DNA from: Candidatus Latescibacterota bacterium
GTDB taxonomy: Bacteria > Latescibacterota > UBA2968 > GCA-2709665
Reading direction: 5' to 3'
DNA length: 64,000 nucleotides
NCBI GenBank assembly: GCA_965248435.1
Contig: OZ252100.1
Location: 4,640,001-4,704,000, forward strand
Numbering within the stretch: the stretch's first letter is position 1; every line of letters begins with the position of its first letter. The notes under the pieces are model-generated. The model had not been told where the DNA came from. It was given only the letters and a program-made list of their open reading frames with translations, and did no database searches. A program made the translations under genes and the position numbers. Shown in pieces: positions 4,455-18,033 of the stretch.

Positions 4455-5447
4455 ATGGAAGCACAAAACGCGGACCCACAGATTCTGATTGTGGACGACA
4501 CCCCCAAGAACCTCCAAGTGCTGGGAACAGTGCTGAAAAAGGAAGGTTACAGCATTATTGTTGCTCAAAACGGGCTGCAGGCTCTGGAAGCCACTGAGAA
4601 AGTGCCTCCGGACTTGATCCTGCTGGACGTGATGATGCCGGAACTGGACGGGTTCGAGACGTGCAAACGGCTCAAGGAGAACCCGGAAACCCGGGAGATT
4701 CCCGTCATCTTCCTGACGGCGAGAATCGAAACAGAAGACATCGTCAAAGGGTTCGATTTTGGGGCGGTGGATTACGTGACGAAGCCGTTCAATGCCACGG
4801 AACTGCTGGCTCGATGCAGAACGCATCTGACGCTGCGGAGGCTGCAACTGCACCTGGGGCAACTTGTGGACGAACGGACCCGGGAGCTGCAGCTGGCCGT
4901 GGCGGCATTGAGGGGACGCGATGCCCTCTTGAAGCACATGCTCTACCTGCACAAGCCGGAGGAGACGCTGGGCATGGCGGTGAAGCTGGCGCTAGAACTG
5001 TGCGGCTGCGAAACAGGAGCGCTGTACACGCTGGATACGGACGGACGCATGGTGCTGAGGACAGCCGTGGGGTTCCAGCAACCCGGCGTGCCGGTGGAAG
5101 ATCCGGGCAGCCTGGGGCTGGAGGGGGCCGACGAAGCGACGTTCACGGAAGCCATAGAGAACCTGAAGCCGTCGCTGACGCAAGATCCGAGTGCCGCTCG
5201 GAGAAGGTTCGACATCCACAGCTTCGGAGTGCTGCCGATATGCCGGGGAGAGGAACTTCTCGCCCTGCTGGAGTTGGGGCGGAATCGGCAGAACGCGCTG
5301 GTGGAAGCGGTCCAGCTGGAAGCGCTCGAGGAGTTTCTCCCCTACGTGGTCATGGCCGTCGTAGACTGCAGGCTGCAGGAAGAGGTGCCGGACTGGAGCG
5401 GGGACGTGGATGAGATTTTGAGGGAGACGGACGAGTGGACGGAGTGA
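4455..5447 (+). CDS. Response regulator with C-terminal GAF-like domain
   Basis: REC domain, coiled coil LVDERTREL, GAF-like segment; GGAG RBS before ATG 4455. Confidence 0.85.
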   Translation: MEAQNADPQILIVDDTPKNLQVLGTVLKKEGYSIIVAQNGLQALEATEKVPPDLILLDVMMPELDGFETCKRLKENPETREIPVIFLTARIETEDIVKGFDFGAVDYVTKPFNATELLARCRTHLTLRRLQLHLGQLVDERTRELQLAVAALRGRDALLKHMLYLHKPEETLGMAVKLALELCGCETGALYTLDTDGRMVLRTAVGFQQPGVPVEDPGSLGLEGADEATFTEAIENLKPSLTQDPSAARRRFDIHSFGVLPICRGEELLALLELGRNRQNALVEAVQLEALEEFLPYVVMAVVDCRLQEEVPDWSGDVDEILRETDEWTE

Positions 5448-9606: not shown

Positions 9607-9818
9607 TGTTGCGGGGGAATCAATCTGAAGGAAGCTTTGACTGGACAGACTGTCCTCCCAAAGTTCAGCTCTGGGTCTCCATAAAGTCTCCATCGAAATG
9701 TACAAACCGGTTGTATTGCATTTTCCTTGATTTAATTTCATTAAAGTCATATCCTTTTGGGCATCAGCGAGTTGTGGATAAACTTGTTGCAGCCCAATGA
9801 GTTACATAATCCTTCAGA

Positions 9819-9865
9819 GTGGATTTGTAATCCGTAGGTTGGGGGTTCGAGTCCCCTGGGCGGCT
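9819..9865 (+). tRNA. 3' part of a tRNA-Thr(UGU) gene (att-site remnant or pseudo-tRNA)
   Basis: GTGGA-TTTGTAA-TCCGT anticodon arm, GGGGG-TTCGAGT-CCCCT T arm, GGGCGGCT acceptor strand; no canonical D arm. Confidence 0.7.
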
Positions 9866-9949
9866 TTAAAACACGTGGATCGTGGATCGTCGCTCGTCGT
9901 TCGCAAGCAGAAGTCAGTTCACCGCTTGGACCTTGCCCGGGAGTGGGCT

Positions 9950-10919
9950 CAGACGGTTAAAGCGGATGCCCTTCGCGGCGAGATTCGCGGAAAGAAGAAG
10001 CTGGAGCCCATACCGTTTGGCACATTCGCTGATGAATACCTGAAGGTCTGGGGTCTTAAGCGGAAACCAAGCACTGTTGAACGAGAGAAGACCCGCATTG
10101 ATGGAATCCTAAAACCATATTTTGGACAGAAACCCATTCAAACCATTTCTCGCAAGGACATTGACCTCTATATTGCTAAACGGCTGAGCGGCGAATTTCG
10201 CATACGGCTCTCCGGAGGTATCTCCAAAGCTACCGCGAACAGAGAACTTTGTCGTTTGAAGAACATGCTTCAGAAAGCTGTCGAATGGGGATACCTACCG
10301 AGTAATCCAGCTGAAGGGGTCAAGCAGGAACCAGAGAAAGTTGAGGAAGCTGACTTTCTAAGTAGTAGCCAGCCTGTTGGAGGCCTGTGACGAAAATATT
10401 CAAGCCCTGGTGGTAGCAGCTGTTAATACAGGCATGAGATGGGGAGAGTTAATGGCGCTCGAATGGAGGGATATTGACTTTGAGCGGACGCTGATAACTG
10501 TGCGGGATTCCAAGAACAATGAGACACGTTATGTACGAATGAATACGGCTGTCAGCCAAACCCTGGAATCTCATCAGCGAAATCAGGCACAGAAGGCCGG
10601 CGGCATTGTTCCGATTGTCTTCGCAAACCCGGATACTGGCAAGCCCTATCGGGACATCCGCGGGCCTTTTTACAGAGCTCTGCGCAAGGCTGGAATTGCT
10701 CGACACTTTTCTTTTCACGGTCTTCGGCACACAGCCGCCAGTCATCTAGTCATGGCAGGTGTTGATCTCCGAGCAGTAGGGAAGATCCTTGGGCACAAGA
10801 CCGCACAGATTACCCTTCGATACGCCCATCTTGGTCATGACTATCTGAAGGGGGCAGTTGACAGGCTCGATTTCTCACCCGCAAGATTCGAAGCAAATCG
10901 TGCGGATAAAAGCCTATAA
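9950..10919 (+). pseudogene. Phage/ICE-type tyrosine integrase, N-terminally truncated and frameshifted near 10360
   Basis: SAM-like part (SKATANRELCRLKNMLQKAVEWG) and catalytic part (NTGMRWGEL, FHGLRHTAASHL, LGH, LRYAH) lie in different frames. Confidence 0.85.
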
Positions 10920-11267
10920 AGACTCCAGGGATTTTCGTTCGAAAGAATCAGGGCCTTCACTCTTTTGTGAAGGCCCTACTTGTATGTCCCTCTAAGCGGG
11001 TGGAAAGCATGACCTCATGAATGCCATTTATATTCAGGCTTTTCAGGTTATTTCGTCTAGTTTCATAAGCGTTTGTGCTGTATAGACAAAGGCCGAGGAC
11101 ATTTGTATATTGATTCGTGGTATTTCGGCCGGTTTTGGCTTGGCTTGTTAGAAAATTGTTAGAAAACCCCGTGCTGGTTCTATAGGTAGCATTCACGAAC
11201 AGGTTCAGATTATTTCCCTGTGGGGTGGATTCTGCGAAGTTCGTGATATACCCCGCTTCAGCCAATA

Positions 11268-11300
11268 TTGCGAACTGGTTCGCTAATGCAGTAGTTGAAC
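11268..11300 (+). other. attI-like recombination site
   Basis: Palindrome GCGAAC-TG-GTTCGC, then inverse core CGCTAAT, 6-nt spacer and GTTGAAC core at the start of the first cassette. Confidence 0.5.
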
Positions 11301-11451
11301 TAAACCGCTTCGCGGTGGCCTGCTGCAAGGCCTTTGCTCTTTGACAACCAGGATATGATACCGTGCAAGTCCGGAGCCACTTTGCAAATGGCTCTGTGCT
11401 TTGCATCCTCCTTCTGCTAACAACGTCCACCATCAGCAGAAGGAGAGAGCC

Positions 11452-12303
11452 ATGACCAAGCATCGGAAGCGAATGATCCGGGACATGCAGTTGAAAGGTT
11501 TAGATCCGGATACGCAGAAGGCGTACGTGAGCGGAGTGGCCGGGCTGTGTCGTTACTGCAAGACACCGCCCGACCGGCTCAGCGAAGAAGAGATCCGCGC
11601 CTATCTGCACTATCTGATCACTGAGCGGAAGCTGTCCCAAAGCTATGTCAACCAGGTATACAGCGGGCTGAAGTTTCTGTTCCAAACGACGTTGAAGCGT
11701 GACTGGGTCGAGTGGGGCATCCCTCGTGCGAAGAAGGCAAAGAAGCTCCCGGTGGTACTCTCCACAGAGGAAGTGCAGCGGCTGATCGACAGGACCAACA
11801 ACCTGAAACACCGTACGCTGCTGATGGTCATTTACTCTGGCGGGCTCAGACTGAGTGAGGCCATCGGGCTAAAGCTTTCCGATATCGACAGTGACCGGAT
11901 GCTGATCCGTGTGCGGGGCAAAGGCCAAAAAGAGCGAGAGACGCTTCTGGCCCAGGAGGCCTTAAAGGCACTCCGCGTCTATTGGCGCACCAACCCGTCT
12001 CGCGATTGGCTGTTCCCCGGCGAAAGACCGGACGCGCCGCTCCATGCTCGCACTGTCCAGAAAGTCTTCGAGCAGGCCTGCCGACGCGCGGAGATACAAA
12101 AGCGTGCGAGTGTCCACTCGCTGCGTCACAGCTTCGCCACGCATCTTCTGGACAACGGAGTCGACATCCGCTTCGTCCAACAACTGTTGGGTCACACGAG
12201 CATTCGAACCACCACCGTCTACCTCCACGTCACCACCCGGGACCTCACGCGTATCAGAAGCCCCCTGGACCTTTTGGGAGATGAAGACAAGCCGACTTCG
12301 TAG
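11452..12303 (+). CDS. Site-specific tyrosine recombinase (XerC/D- and IntI-related, intact)
   Basis: GLRLSE, GKGQKER, HSLRHSFATHLL, LLGH, TTVY; no obvious IntI-specific insertion. Confidence 0.95.
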   Translation: MTKHRKRMIRDMQLKGLDPDTQKAYVSGVAGLCRYCKTPPDRLSEEEIRAYLHYLITERKLSQSYVNQVYSGLKFLFQTTLKRDWVEWGIPRAKKAKKLPVVLSTEEVQRLIDRTNNLKHRTLLMVIYSGGLRLSEAIGLKLSDIDSDRMLIRVRGKGQKERETLLAQEALKALRVYWRTNPSRDWLFPGERPDAPLHARTVQKVFEQACRRAEIQKRASVHSLRHSFATHLLDNGVDIRFVQQLLGHTSIRTTTVYLHVTTRDLTRIRSPLDLLGDEDKPTS

Positions 12304-12315
12304 CGGAGGTCGGCC

Positions 12316-13500
12316 ATGTCACAGGCTCTCGAAGTCGCCGACATCTTCCGGGCCCACGGAGACAGCTATCAAGTAGAATACGGTGATCACATGCCGCTTC
12401 GGCAGAAGCGGGCCATGCGGGCTATCCAGATCTGCCGAACAGCTGCGCTGGGCGGACACGTGGAAGTGTGCGGACACTGCGGAGCGAAGCGGATCGCCTA
12501 CAACTCCTGCCGCAACCGGCACTGTACGAAGTGCCAGTTCCTGACGACCGAACGATGGATCGACGCTCGTAAAGAGGATCTCCTTCCGATCCCATACTTC
12601 CACGTCGTCTTCACGTTGCCCGAGCCCCTGCGGCCGCTTGCTCTGCGGAACCAGAAGCTGATCTACAACCTGGTGTTTAAAGCCGCATCGCAGAGTCTTC
12701 TGGAGCTGGCGCGGGAACGGAAGTATCTTGGAGCGCAGATCGGCTTTACCGCCGTGCTTCATACATGGTCTCAGACACTCATCGACCACCCGCATCTGCA
12801 CTGTATCGTAACTGGAGGTGGGCTGACCCACGACGGTCAGGAATGGAAGGCGGCGCGACGGGGCTTCTTTCTACCCGTAAAAGTTCTGTCCCGACTGTTC
12901 CGGGGGAAGTTCCTTGCGTTCCTGAAGGACGCGCACCAGGAAGGCCTTCTGGCGTTCCCGGGATTGAGTGCTCCACTGGAAGATGCGTTCTTCGATCTGC
13001 TTCGGGGTCTTTACCAGAGAGAATGGACCGTTTACGTCAAGCCGACTTTTGCGGATCCAGAACGCGTCGTGGCCTATCTGGGACGATACACACACCGGAT
13101 CGCCATCTCCAACCACCGGCTGGTCGCCTGTGAGGGCGACCGGGTCTCATTCCACTACCGGGACCGCCAGGACGGCAACCGACGGAAGCTGATGACCGTC
13201 GATGCCTACGAGTTCATCCGGCGGTTCCTGCTTCACATCCTGCCGGATGGCTTCGTGAAGATCCGGCACTACGGACTGCTCAGCAATCGGGGTCGCCGGA
13301 AAAAGCTCGCACGATGCCGTAGGCTCCTGGGCACTGTATGCACGACGGCTTCCGCAGCCACAAAGGCGACCTGGCAGGACCTTCTGCTCCGGGTAACAGG
13401 CATCGATCTTCAGGTCTGTGCGCAGTGCGGAGGCCCTATGCTCACAGTCGGAACCCTCGCGCCTCTGCGAGCGCCTCCGGCACATGTTGCCGTAGCTTGA
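12316..13500 (+). CDS. IS91-family rolling-circle (HUH, Y2) transposase with zinc-binding domain
   Basis: CRTAALGGH..C..C..YNSCRNRHCTKC; HUH motif HPHLH; YLGRYTHR; EFIRRFLLHILP-GFVKIRHYG. Confidence 0.95.
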   Translation: MSQALEVADIFRAHGDSYQVEYGDHMPLRQKRAMRAIQICRTAALGGHVEVCGHCGAKRIAYNSCRNRHCTKCQFLTTERWIDARKEDLLPIPYFHVVFTLPEPLRPLALRNQKLIYNLVFKAASQSLLELARERKYLGAQIGFTAVLHTWSQTLIDHPHLHCIVTGGGLTHDGQEWKAARRGFFLPVKVLSRLFRGKFLAFLKDAHQEGLLAFPGLSAPLEDAFFDLLRGLYQREWTVYVKPTFADPERVVAYLGRYTHRIAISNHRLVACEGDRVSFHYRDRQDGNRRKLMTVDAYEFIRRFLLHILPDGFVKIRHYGLLSNRGRRKKLARCRRLLGTVCTTASAATKATWQDLLLRVTGIDLQVCAQCGGPMLTVGTLAPLRAPPAHVAVA

Positions 13501-13705
13501 GCTCCTACACCATCCCTTGCCCGCAAGCCCAACCACCCAACACGGCAGTAGTCTGTCCACTCTTTGAGCTTGGTAGAGCGACTATGGGATCCTGCGACAT
13601 CGGCCCCTCCAAACAGCTTCAAATACGGTCCGATGACTGGGCCAGCCCAGCGGTCCTTACACAAGAATCACTCATCCAATCCCCATAGGCAGGTGAAGCG
13701 GCTTC

Positions 13706-13780
13706 GTTCAACACCGTGTATCCGGAATCCCGCTCCCATCCACGCTTCTCCGACTCCGGATACACGCTTAATCGTTATAC
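13706..13780 (+). repeat. attC-like site 1 (75 bp)
   Basis: GTTCAAC ... CGTGTATCCGGA/TCCGGATACACG stem ... GTTATAC. Confidence 0.75.
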
Positions 13781-13814
13781 GGCATTGGCCGGGGAATGAA
13801 TCCAGTAACCACCA

Positions 13815-14375
13815 ATGGCAGAGCAACCTAACCTAGAAACCGACAGACTTCTCCTTCGTCCATTTGTGGAGAAAGATGCGCCGAGAGTCCACAAACTCGC
13901 GGGCGATCGGGAGATCGCAGCCACCACTCTCAACATCCCACATCCATACGAAGCGGGAGACGCGGAGAAGTGGATCTCAACCCATAGGAAGGCCTTCGAT
14001 TCCGGAAATGAAGTGATCTTCGCGGTAACCCTCAAGTTAGATGGATTGCTCATTGGCGCGATCGGGCTTGTAATCAGCCGACCACATGACAGAGGGGAGA
14101 TGGGATACTGGATCGGCAAGGAATACTGGGGAAGCGGTTACTGCACAGAAGCTGCGAAGGCTGTTTTGCACTACGGTTTTGACGAACTCGGGTTGAACAA
14201 GATTCACGCGAGGCACATGGACACCAATCCGGCCTCTGGGCGAGTCCTAGAGAAGATCGGTATGGGCTACGAGGGGTGTTTGAAGCAACATTACAAGAAG
14301 TGGGATGCCTTCGGTGATTACCACGTTTACGGAATCCTGCGAGACGAATACCAACAGCAAAGAACAAAATCATAG
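13815..14375 (+). CDS. RimJ/RimL-type GNAT N-acetyltransferase, gene cassette
   Basis: LETDRLLLRPF, EMGYWIGKEYWGSGYCTEA, NPASGRVLEKIGM; lies between two attC-like sites. Confidence 0.92.
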   Translation: MAEQPNLETDRLLLRPFVEKDAPRVHKLAGDREIAATTLNIPHPYEAGDAEKWISTHRKAFDSGNEVIFAVTLKLDGLLIGAIGLVISRPHDRGEMGYWIGKEYWGSGYCTEAAKAVLHYGFDELGLNKIHARHMDTNPASGRVLEKIGMGYEGCLKQHYKKWDAFGDYHVYGILRDEYQQQRTKS

Positions 14376-14390
14376 AACCTGGCCAACGCC

Positions 14391-14534
14391 GTATAACACG
14401 CCGGGCTGCGGCTCCGGCGCATTCGCGCCTCCGCCTAACCTGCCTATCGCTGTCACGCCGCTTGCTTTATCAAAACCGTGGGGGGCAAGCGCCGCGCCAG
14501 CTTGGCAGGTTCGCAGCCCGCGAGACCGTTAAGC
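14391..14534 (+). repeat. attC-like site 2 (144 bp)
   Basis: GTATAAC ... CGGGCTGCG/CGCAGCCCG, AACCTGCC/GGCAGGTT and GCTTGC/GCAAGC stems ... GTTAAGC. Confidence 0.8.
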
Positions 14535-14737
14535 GCACATGTTGTTTTTTGTGTAATGGAAACTATAAGGGAGCAAATGCAGCCTCGAACCACACACAAA
14601 TCTGCATATTTCCTGTCTAACTGGACTAAGGGTATTCATTTAGCGTTGAAACCGTGTATGAGCGTGCCCGATTGAGCCTGTCGGATCACCAGTGGATGGA
14701 GCACTTCATTATCGCCTTCAAGTCTGAGTAAGATCCG

Positions 14738-15904
14738 ATGACTATAACACAAGCATCCGTTGAGGCGCTCACGCGTGGCCCAAAGTATCATTGGTTCGGC
14801 TACTACGATAAGTGCCAGTTCGACCCCACTGGCAGATACGTGCTTGGCATGGAAGTCGACTTTGAACACCGGTCGCCCACGACAGACGATGTCATTTCAA
14901 TCGGGATGATCGATCTGCAGGATGGCAATCGCTGGACCGACCTAGGTCATAGCTCGGCTTGGTGCTGGCAACAGGGCTGCATGCTGCAGTGGCTCCCCGG
15001 CTCCGACACACAGATTGTCTGGAACGATCGGCAGGATGATCGCTTTATCTGCCACGTACTCGACATACGTTCCAGTGAGAAGAAGACGATCCCTTCCCCC
15101 ATCTATACCGTTGCCCCCGACGGCACAACCGCCTTCGCCACGGATTTCAGTCGCAATAACGACACGCGGCCCGGTTATGGCTATCCGGGCATCCCCGACC
15201 CCAACGGGGACTGCCTCGCACCGGACAACTCGGGCATCTGGCGAGTGGACCTCGAGAGCGGAAAAAACGAACTGATTCTCACCATCGCCGACGTCGTGGC
15301 ACTCCCCTACCCGCACGGAGACCTGACCAGGGCAAAGCACTGGTTCAACCACCTGCTGGTCAGTCCCGACGCCTCACGCCTCGAGTTCTTGCATCGATGG
15401 CAAGAGGAGGGCACGCCGAGCCGTCGAACCCGAATGCTGACGTGTGCGCCCGACGGAAGTGATGTGCGCGTCGTGGATGACTGCGGCGTGACATCACATT
15501 TTATATGGCACGATGCTGAGCACATTCTGGCGTGGTCCCAGGCACATTCCTCCCGCGGGAATTTCTGTCTGTTCAACGAGCGTACGGGCAGCTACGAGCC
15601 CATTGGCAGTGACCTGATGACGCGGGATGGTCACGTCAATTGCCTGCCGCAAGCCGAGTGGCTCGTGAACGACACCTATCCGAACGAAGACAGAGTGCGA
15701 AGCCTGTACCTATATCACCTACCAAGTGCTCTACGAATTGACATAGGAGGATTCTTTACGCCCCCGGAATACGACGGCAAGTGGCGTTGTGACCTCCATC
15801 CAAGACTGAGTCCCGACGGCTACAAAGTGATCGTTGACTCTGCGCACGGAGGGAATGGCAGGCAGATGTACCTGATGGATATTGGCGATATCATCGCGCA
15901 TTGA
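14738..15904 (+). CDS. TolB-like beta-propeller protein (oligogalacturonate lyase-like)
   Basis: HWFGYYD, AWCWQQG, HWFNH, RCDLHPR motifs. Confidence 0.7.
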   Translation: MTITQASVEALTRGPKYHWFGYYDKCQFDPTGRYVLGMEVDFEHRSPTTDDVISIGMIDLQDGNRWTDLGHSSAWCWQQGCMLQWLPGSDTQIVWNDRQDDRFICHVLDIRSSEKKTIPSPIYTVAPDGTTAFATDFSRNNDTRPGYGYPGIPDPNGDCLAPDNSGIWRVDLESGKNELILTIADVVALPYPHGDLTRAKHWFNHLLVSPDASRLEFLHRWQEEGTPSRRTRMLTCAPDGSDVRVVDDCGVTSHFIWHDAEHILAWSQAHSSRGNFCLFNERTGSYEPIGSDLMTRDGHVNCLPQAEWLVNDTYPNEDRVRSLYLYHLPSALRIDIGGFFTPPEYDGKWRCDLHPRLSPDGYKVIVDSAHGGNGRQMYLMDIGDIIAH

Positions 15905-16568: not shown

Positions 16569-16628
16569 GTGAAACGTGAAGCGTGAAACGTGATGTAGCA
16601 AATCACGAATCACCTTTCACGCTTCACG
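16569..16628. repeat. Inverted heptamer tandem repeat
   Basis: GTGAAAC/GTGAAGC units followed by complementary TCACG units. Confidence 0.7.
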
Positions 16629-17904: not shown

Positions 17905-18033
17905 ACAACAGACCCAAATGGATTAAGAGAGATTGGAGATTGGCGATTTAGGCTAATCTCCAATCTCTGATCTCCTGACCACGAACGAGTAGGTTGTTAG
18001 TTCTTGGCACTAAACCAATAAGCAGGAGGCAGA

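Follow-up and report, generated by a model that had tools for sequence, protein, structure and literature searches.

The locus described here lies in a window of 64,000 nt, the whole stretch of DNA that was analyzed, which spans positions 4,640,001 to 4,704,000 of contig OZ252100.1 (C1; assembly GCA_965248435.1) in the genome of a Candidatus Latescibacterota bacterium (G000; 97.5% complete, two contigs). At this locus, a split phage-type integrase, a tyrosine recombinase, an IS91-family Y2 transposase, and a GNAT acetyltransferase are encoded in this order, and two inverted repeats are present, one at the ends of the recombinase/transposase unit (hereafter, the insertion sequence [IS] unit) and the other around the acetyltransferase gene. 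These repeats are the outermost part of the recombination hairpin (attC site) of a lineage-specific, integron-type cassette system, in which the start of each cassette pairs with the sequence that opens its own attC beyond the 7-bp R box.

A repeat search paired positions 13774-13793 with 14378-14397 around the GNAT gene (18/20 complementary) and positions 11294-11311 with 13695-13712 in the IS unit (16/18); by manual count, the latter repeat is 17/20 complementary over 11294-11313 against 13693-13712. A preliminary description of this DNA had placed inverted repeats at the cassette ends, and both were recovered where it put them, with the 16/17 core of the GNAT repeat and the 17/20 count confirmed. 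The sole mismatch in the GNAT core is A against G at position 11, and the IS unit repeat shows the same A/G difference at the same position. The left arms of both repeats begin exactly at the G|TT unit boundaries, which were set by multicopy comparison and by an empty-site contig (see below), and the right arms stop precisely at the R'' box with which a hairpin site begins. Both GNAT arms lie outside the open reading frame (ORF), the start codon of which is at 13815 and the stop codon at 14373-14375. By simple binomial arithmetic, about 0.05 unanchored 18/20 repeats within 3 kb are expected per 11-kb stretch such as this one, compared to about 0.7 repeats of the 16/18 type, so that the IS unit repeat taken alone could be due to chance. 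A chance origin of the repeats is ruled out by their position, recurrence, and covariation.

The GNAT cassette and its attC family

The unit that carries the GNAT gene (13774-14534) is a genuine mobile cassette. A second copy of it, at C1:1443350-1442588 (97% identity over 765 aligned positions, query stretch 13774-14537), resides in another array with other neighbors on both sides, and the identity between the two begins and ends at GTT. The attC family of this cassette gave 76 matches in the genome by iterated nhmmer, and separate models of the two ends yielded 52-53 paired sites, which come in a short (~85 bp) and a long (~140 bp) form. On C1, these sites form seven strand-consistent clusters (at ~0.96-0.99, 1.44, 2.06-2.09, 3.85-3.87, 4.95, 5.34, and 5.55 Mb), within which they are spaced ~0.5-2 kb apart and separate co-oriented units, each closing with an attC. 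These clusters are cassette arrays in the integron sense. Each site is bounded by an R'' (..AAC) and an R' (GTT..) box, and the crossover is at G|TT; copies of the GNAT cassette and of the IS unit begin and end there, and the empty-site joint falls there as well. Predicted folds show an R stem, an asymmetric spacer of 5 nt versus 8 nt, and an L stem. The integron R' consensus contains an RRRY part; R' here reads GTTANNN and does not keep strictly to that consensus. Another multicopy cassette, which starts with GTTAGAT followed by identical bases, is found behind three different attCs in three arrays (C1:1445524, 2067526, and 3860687).

An outer stem that covaries cassette by cassette

Candidate cassettes were defined as an R' box followed by the next R'' box without an intervening R' (n = 50 in G000), and the opening of the next attC (13 nt plus NNNNAAC) was reverse complemented and compared with the cassette start (GTTNNNN plus 13 nt). 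The R box is complementary at all seven positions in 32 of the 50 candidates, and the main counts are restricted to this 7/7 set; candidates with fewer than seven matches were dropped (18/50 in G000 and 28/55 in the related genomes considered below). Among these 32 cassettes, identity to the own partner is 0.94, 0.91, and 0.69 at positions 8-10, 0.81-0.84 at positions 12-14, and 0.78 and 0.69 at positions 15-16, falling to background by about position 20; the cassette start and its own attC pair over ~9-12 bp past the 7-bp R box. Identity to non-own partners is 0.24-0.47 throughout except for position 8, where it is 0.94, as with the own partner, and where G is found in 30 of the 32 cassette starts. 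The mean match over the 13 outer positions is 7.5 for own partners in all 50 candidates and 8.4 (8.38) in the 7/7 set, compared to 4.42 for 2,444 non-own pairings, and at least 9/13 matches beyond the R box are seen in 24 of the 50 cassettes versus 1.5% of the non-own pairings. Given the high match to own partners and the background match to all others, the outer pairing covaries cassette by cassette.

Position 11, which is located 4 bp outside the R box, matches in none of the 32 cassettes. It is A in 31 of the 32 starts and G in 29 of the 32 reverse-complemented ends, that is, an A.C mismatch on the top strand and a T.G wobble on the bottom strand. Position 10 is often unpaired as well, with A against T in about a third of the cassettes. 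Outer positions 12-19 show covariation and no sequence conservation. The proposal in the preliminary description that pairing rather than sequence is conserved in these repeats is thus mostly upheld by the comparison of own and non-own partners, but it has to be narrowed because G at position 8 (30/32) and the A/G combination at position 11 (nearly all cassettes) are conserved in sequence.

The arm that precedes R'' matches the start of its own cassette at 8.57/13 positions and the start of the next cassette at 4.50/13, which equals the background (n = 28). Because the two ends become adjacent in the excised circle, the extra stem forms only there; within an array, the arm lies opposite the next cassette's start instead. 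DNA folds made with 20 nt of flank and a simulated circle context gave mean bottom-strand energies of -48.3 kcal/mol for the circle and -38.1 kcal/mol for the array (n = 28), the circle fold being more stable in 27 of the 28 cassettes, with a gain of about -10 kcal/mol. The bottom strand folds more stably than the top strand, also in 27 of 28. Single folds of both units in the window show a contiguous long stem. In the circle, the R stem reaches ~16-19 bp, compared to 9-11 bp in classical cassettes, and the lengthening of the stem by ~10-13 bp that the preliminary description had expected in an excised circle is reproduced by simulated folding, in the circle only.

Recurrence in related genomes

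The attC family was detected by BLAST in 17 of 41 related genomes (G000 included), and its 3' motif is present in 43 of 168 genomes of the phylum, with G000 the richest (49) and no matches to a reversed control pattern. Six relatives contributed 27 unique 7/7 cassettes from 55 candidates, which match at positions 8-15 with frequencies of 0.59-1.00 and have a mean outer match of 6.7/13. At position 11, none of these 27 matches: the starts have A in 26, and the ends have G in 20, C in 5, and T in 2. Across G000 and the relatives together, position 11 is Watson-Crick paired in 0 of 59 cassettes. Outward complementarity is not confined to the window; it recurs across the genome and in all six of these relatives.

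Cassettes adjacent to canonical integron integrases

The controls included 80 loci around genes for the canonical integron integrase (IntI) from many phyla and four class 1 integron regions from plasmids. The control attCs were located with a simple structural scan that does not distinguish orientation and that found 10 of 18 known sites in one test array and missed several class 1 attCs. Pairs were kept only if the R box was 7/7 complementary, which removed 264 of 290 pairs in a strict version of the scan and 1,080 of 1,116 in a relaxed one. The relaxed scan left 32 unique cassettes, distributed over 20 loci, whose outer match averages 4.66/13 against 8.38/13 in G000 (Mann-Whitney p = 4.5e-8); the match is 0.84 at position 8 and ~0.45-0.50 at positions 9-11 and is at background from position 12. 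For the 26 cassettes left by the strict scan (11 loci), the outer match averages 5.38/13. Next to canonical IntI, class 1 integrons included, the extension is only 1-4 bp. Bouvier 2009 (PMC2727003) states that most classical cassettes self-pair past 7 nt, to 9-11 nt in total, and the control scan agrees with that figure, which indicates that the classical extension is short and that the family described here approximately doubles the stem. Classical cassettes are accordingly not equally complementary outward. The notion that they need only 7-bp cores, voiced in the preliminary description, does not hold against either the published 9-11 nt or the 1-4 bp of our controls.

The IS unit

The features of the locus are collected in Table 1.

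TABLE 1 Features of the cassette locus (window coordinates)
Feature	Position	Strand	Basis or remark
Putative attI-like module, ~135 nt, ending at the crossover G|TT	11160-11293	+	nhmmer match C1:4651160-4651296
ISAzo26-like IS91-family unit	11294-13777	+	6 copies; identity from G|TTGAAC to ...AATCG|TTA; crossover ambiguous within GTT(A)
Left inverted repeat of the IS unit (GTTGAAC + 13 nt)	11294-11313	+	R'-like box and, once circular, outer stem arm
IntI/Xer-like tyrosine recombinase, 283 aa	11452-12303	+	Pfam PF13495 + PF00589
IS91-family Y2 (HUH) transposase	12316-13500	+	Pfam PF04986 (Y2_Tnp) + PF14319 (Zn_Tnp_IS91); NF033538, 452.7 bits (cutoff 125)
Right subterminal inverted repeat of the IS unit: outer arm + R''-like GTTCAAC	13693-13712	+	
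attC-like site of the IS unit, 75 bp; R'' 13706-13712, R' 13774-13780	13706-13780	+	Sequence, folds
GNAT cassette start: R' GTTATAC + 13-nt outer arm	13774-13793	+	Repeat search; 97%-identical second copy begins here
GNAT N-acetyltransferase ORF (Acetyltransf_3, RimJ/RimL-like), cassette cargo	13815-14375	+	Pfam PF13302, E = 8.4e-38
Outer arm + R'' (GTATAAC, 14391-14397) of the GNAT cassette's own attC	14378-14397	+	
GNAT cassette attC, 144 nt from R'' to R'; R' GTTAAGC 14528-14534; crossover G14528|T	14391-14534	+	

Judging from its sequence, the recombinase/transposase unit is an ISAzo26-type element of the IS91 family. Its transposase carries an N-terminal zinc-binding domain and is encoded directly downstream of the tyrosine recombinase gene, and the recombinase is 47.5% identical to the one encoded next to an "IS91-like element ISAzo26 family transposase" on plasmid 2 of Aromatoleum aromaticum EbN1. 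In the EbN1 element, nearly the same repeat (GTTGGACTAAACCGC..., 2863-2884 versus 5337-5358 of locus L145) is followed by a hairpin with 25-bp arms (5359-5441). The preliminary description had counted the IS unit as a second case of structure conserved without sequence; with its repeats conserved in sequence across phyla, down to a betaproteobacterial plasmid, it is not an independent example. The EbN1 copy comes directly after a perfect 32-bp palindrome (L145 2832-2863), suggesting that such elements target the 3' foot of hairpins.

The geometry of the IS unit is that of a cassette: the left arm starts at the first base, and the right arm ends in an R''-like GTTCAAC box that opens a 75-bp site closed by the crossover GTT. 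This site contains an 11-bp perfect hairpin (arms 13716-13726 and 13755-13765), and the TTATAC of its R' belongs to the GNAT cassette. The genome contains six copies of the unit at 97-100% identity. All six are preceded by a module of ~135 nt, followed by a cassette start of the family, and abut GTTA, and no direct repeats were seen at them. Unitigs of sequencing run X10 break at 11293 and at 13773/13777; a weak joint of 13777 to 14394 in the same run (20 nt on the shorter side) was not used as evidence, nor were segments lacking coverage in runs X14, X15, and X1. An empty site was found in a contig of an independent seawater-metagenome run (X1), which joins 11293 to 14528, skipping 3,234 nt, with 3 ambiguous bases at the joint and 168 nt on its shorter side; here, the module is followed by the sequence that in G000 lies behind the GNAT attC. 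This joint identifies the IS unit and the GNAT cassette together as a precise 3,234-bp insertion at G|TT. In the IS91 family, insertion takes place next to a tetranucleotide of the GTTC/CTTG type at the right end, and the target is not duplicated. That all six insertions are at a single rare type of site, far more specific than a tetranucleotide, points to site-specific recombination.

Several neighboring features were also noted. The phage-type tyrosine integrase upstream consists of two overlapping ORFs (9797-10390 and 10377-10919), probably split by a frameshift. A paralogous copy with 93% identity, including ~340 nt downstream, is located at C1:4624057-4625493, and the two part ways at window position 11261, 33 nt ahead of the IS unit. 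We considered this integrase (9797-10919) as the integron integrase of the array and rejected it given that it is split, scores poorly as IntI, and has a paralog (C1:4624057-4625166) without an array. An island linked to a tRNA gene was likewise rejected, there being no tRNA within the window. Just behind the last attC, a 388-aa ORF (14738-15904) without Pfam or NCBIfam matches was found; in the empty-site contig, it directly follows the module. Farther downstream, strong local hairpins at 16575-16628 (19/20 complementary) and 17928-17974 (16/17) lie between ordinary-looking genes (cupin and UPF0261) and are probably terminators, not attC-like sites.

The recombinase and the attI-like module

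Search of the whole genome for canonical IntI gave no TIGR02249 match above the cutoff of 265 bits. The best matches in the genome are the six IS recombinases, in two pieces that skip model positions 177-236, the top match having pieces of 104 and 93 bits; the window recombinase scores 195.5 bits, likewise in two such pieces, and it reaches 219 bits with NF040815 (cutoff 220). Alignment with two canonical IntI proteins showed that the IntI-specific insert (I2) is absent from the IS recombinase as well as from its homologs in two related genomes, G001 and G003.

The module upstream of the six IS copies is loosely conserved. Independent matches to it were obtained in G000 (4954349-4954224), G003b (17047-16911), G018, G020 (two), and G002c. 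In G003, the module starts 15 nt behind a recombinase homolog with 51% identity and runs as far as the G|TT of an array's first cassette. The same succession of a recombinase, or its C-terminal remnant, and the module occurs at two places in G003, in G018, at two places in G020, in G002, and at 4954 kb in G000, ahead of the 4.95-Mb array; some of these places are probably orthologous, not independent. The gap between the two is 15 nt in four places (two in G003, G018, and G020 7161) and up to 64 nt in G020 33573, G002, and G000 4954 kb, where the module matches start inside the model. We infer from this arrangement that the module may act as attI and that these arrays may be served by the I2-less recombinase. 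Upstream of IS copies c3 and c2, at two array heads in G000, homologous ORFs of ~340 aa (C1:3848650-3849680 and 1449815-1450830) precede the module, in the place where the relatives have the recombinase gene.

Canonical IntI is encoded in 2 of the 41 related genomes, G004 (same family) and G036 (same order), and no attC of the family was found in either. We examined the IntI locus of G004 as a source of the related cassettes and discarded it: five 20-kb regions around two IntI matches contained neither family attCs nor a clear repeat array, with no matches to the two end models and one weak match (E = 0.012) to the full model. In this genome (C1:2493564-2496269), the genes for an ISAzo26-like recombinase and an IS91 transposase lie 386 nt downstream of canonical IntI, and a second copy (C1:2158606-2160954) keeps only the C-terminal part of IntI, an arrangement that could reflect read-through mobilization of upstream DNA by an IS91-type element.

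DISCUSSION

The explanation that we favor, with moderate confidence, is that the long-stem attCs are recombined by an IntI/Xer-like recombinase that lacks the IntI-specific insert, with the outer arm as the matching adaptation of the site. As the data show, a cassette begins with G|TTANNN and ~9-12 nt that are the reverse complement of the ~9-12 nt plus NNNTAAC opening its own attC; excision brings these ends together in the circle, where the R stem grows to ~16-19 bp. Because the genome lacks canonical IntI, the recombining enzyme would be a different one, namely, the I2-less IntI/Xer-like recombinase that heads arrays in relatives, with the module behind it, and a paralog of which is carried by the IS unit here. 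The IntI-specific insert lets IntI read extrahelical bases. Lacking it, the enzyme might require a longer, duplex-like arm with the conserved G at position 8 and the wobble at position 11, whereas the remaining outer base pairs might favor folding of the circle and hence insertion over excision. Such an enzyme would resemble XerCD, which, according to Escudero 2016 (PMC4792948), has no I2-like domains and acts on a phage site that, once folded, mimics duplex DNA.

Several observations weigh against this explanation. In the relaxed control, about 4 of the 36 pairs (32 without duplicates) are expected by chance, and the control is a sample, not a census. In the relatives, the extension is shorter and stops at about position 15-16. 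Because the module model derives from the six IS flanks of G000 and one from G003, the matches to those six flanks are there by construction. As for the enzyme, array-bearing G002 and G020 contain the recombinase only as fragments, and G021 has arrays and no homolog above the XerC/D-like level (~1e-27), so that the presence of the enzyme is not required for arrays to persist. G000 itself retains no more than a remnant of the platform recombinase, at 4954 kb, and the G001 homolog lies on the opposite strand inside an array gap. Finally, canonical IntI might come from another cell or an unsampled replicon.

In a different account, the arrays are ordinary attC clusters that have no integron integrase (CALINs), a canonical IntI acts in trans or acted in the past, and the long stem is a stabilizing habit of the lineage that no protein reads. 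CALINs are common in genomes without IntI, where half of them lie, as stated in Cury 2016 (PMC4889954); G004 and G036 do encode canonical IntI, and the lack of sequence conservation at positions 12-19 fits a purely stabilizing role. However, both of these IntI-bearing relatives lack attCs of the family, cassettes beside canonical IntI lack the long stem, and the arrays have a dedicated recombinase and an attI-like module at their heads. In addition, G at position 8 and the non-Watson-Crick position 11 (0/59) are conserved past what stability requires. We deem this account unlikely. The preliminary description itself had proposed a second binding site outside the R box; on this view, the outer stem would be bound separately, by an accessory factor or a further recombinase subunit. 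A single arm bound by a tyrosine recombinase is 11-13 bp long, and one Xer-type arm extends 10-11 bp from the cleavage site. The total stem, at ~16-19 bp from the cleavage site, exceeds such an arm, and there is an irregularity at positions 10-11, but a single arm of Xer size takes in both conserved positions (8 and 11), covariation without any sequence signal is all that is seen past position 12, and the stem has no fixed length, decaying from position 16 in G000 and from about 15 in the relatives. A second site of this kind appears improbable.

The pairing might also act in RNA, as a stem that brackets the ORF in the array transcript and serves processing or insulation, or it might be a scar of cassette making, given that both arms are noncoding and flank the ORF. 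On the coding (top) strand, though, the invariant position is an A.C mismatch, the wobble existing on the bottom strand only, and for 27 of 28 cassettes it is the bottom strand that folds more stably. Both arms exactly abut the crossover, with the same geometry in the IS unit, and a scar would not hold one position non-Watson-Crick across 59 cassettes. We give these two possibilities very little credence.

The explanation by an I2-less recombinase can be taken further, to a tentative reading that we consider possible but less than even in likelihood: the long-stemmed attC arrays would represent a second kind of integron, run by an I2-less IntI/Xer-like recombinase related to that of ISAzo26-type elements. 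The enzyme would never have acquired the IntI-specific domain or would have lost it. ISAzo26-type elements would be self-encoding cassettes, the joined ends of which might fold, in a rolling-circle single-stranded copy, into an attC-like site; this copy would then be inserted by the recombinase at hairpin-G|TT targets. If this reading is true, at least some CALINs in IntI-less genomes would be explained, and the system would be a living example of an Xer-like pre-integron state, which appears as a speculation in Escudero 2016 (PMC4792948).

Integron recombination has so far been understood through one enzyme type (IntI with I2) and one site type (R stems of 7-11 bp). The components described here make the question of how CALINs are built and moved directly testable with the recombinase, the module, and an attC with or without its outer arm. 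They also offer a possible concrete job for the unexplained recombinase of ISAzo26-type IS91 elements and bear on the origin of integrons from Xer-like enzymes. Should the stem only tune folding, the family would still be a natural experiment on how circle-specific pairing could bias insertion over excision. A literature search, with supplements outside its scope, returned no description of long outer attC stems, Latescibacterota integrons, or ISAzo26.

Comparison with known systems

The closest counterpart of the IS unit, ISAzo26 on plasmid 2 of EbN1, has the same gene order, the left repeat GTTGRACTAAACCGC, and a subterminal right repeat followed by a long hairpin. It differs in that the EbN1 copy follows a 32-bp palindrome, whereas all six copies here lie at integron-like attI/cassette junctions; the end of the EbN1 element is our own reading of the sequence, not a defined boundary. 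For ISCR28, PMC12772301 mentions attC-like sites at the end of, or right after, the IS91-like gene, as data not shown. Such sites at the gene end are shared with the IS unit and could bear on the attC-like ends of IS91-like elements, but ISCR elements have no recombinase. XerCD acting on folded single-stranded DNA of phage CTX shares with the proposed system a recombinase without an I2-like domain and a stem that mimics a duplex; the likeness is by analogy only, and the sites described here, unlike the CTX site, keep an attC-like inner structure and form arrays. In common with CALINs, the arrays consist of attCs with no IntI nearby, in a genome without IntI. In contrast to CALINs, the arrays of relatives have another tyrosine recombinase and a conserved module at their heads, so that the arrays may not be orphans.

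With classical integrons, the system shares R'' and R' boxes that end in AAC and start with GTT, respectively, the G|TT crossover, co-oriented arrays, and complementarity of the cassette start to its own R''; predicted folds further resemble theirs in favoring the bottom strand and in giving an imperfect hairpin, in which the L stem is internal and the spacer asymmetric. It differs from them in having no insert-bearing IntI in this genome and in a recombinase gene that points in the same direction as the cassettes, with the attI-like module behind it. The sites themselves are set apart by an R stem of 16-19 bp instead of 9-11 bp and by an invariant wobble 4 bp outside the R box.

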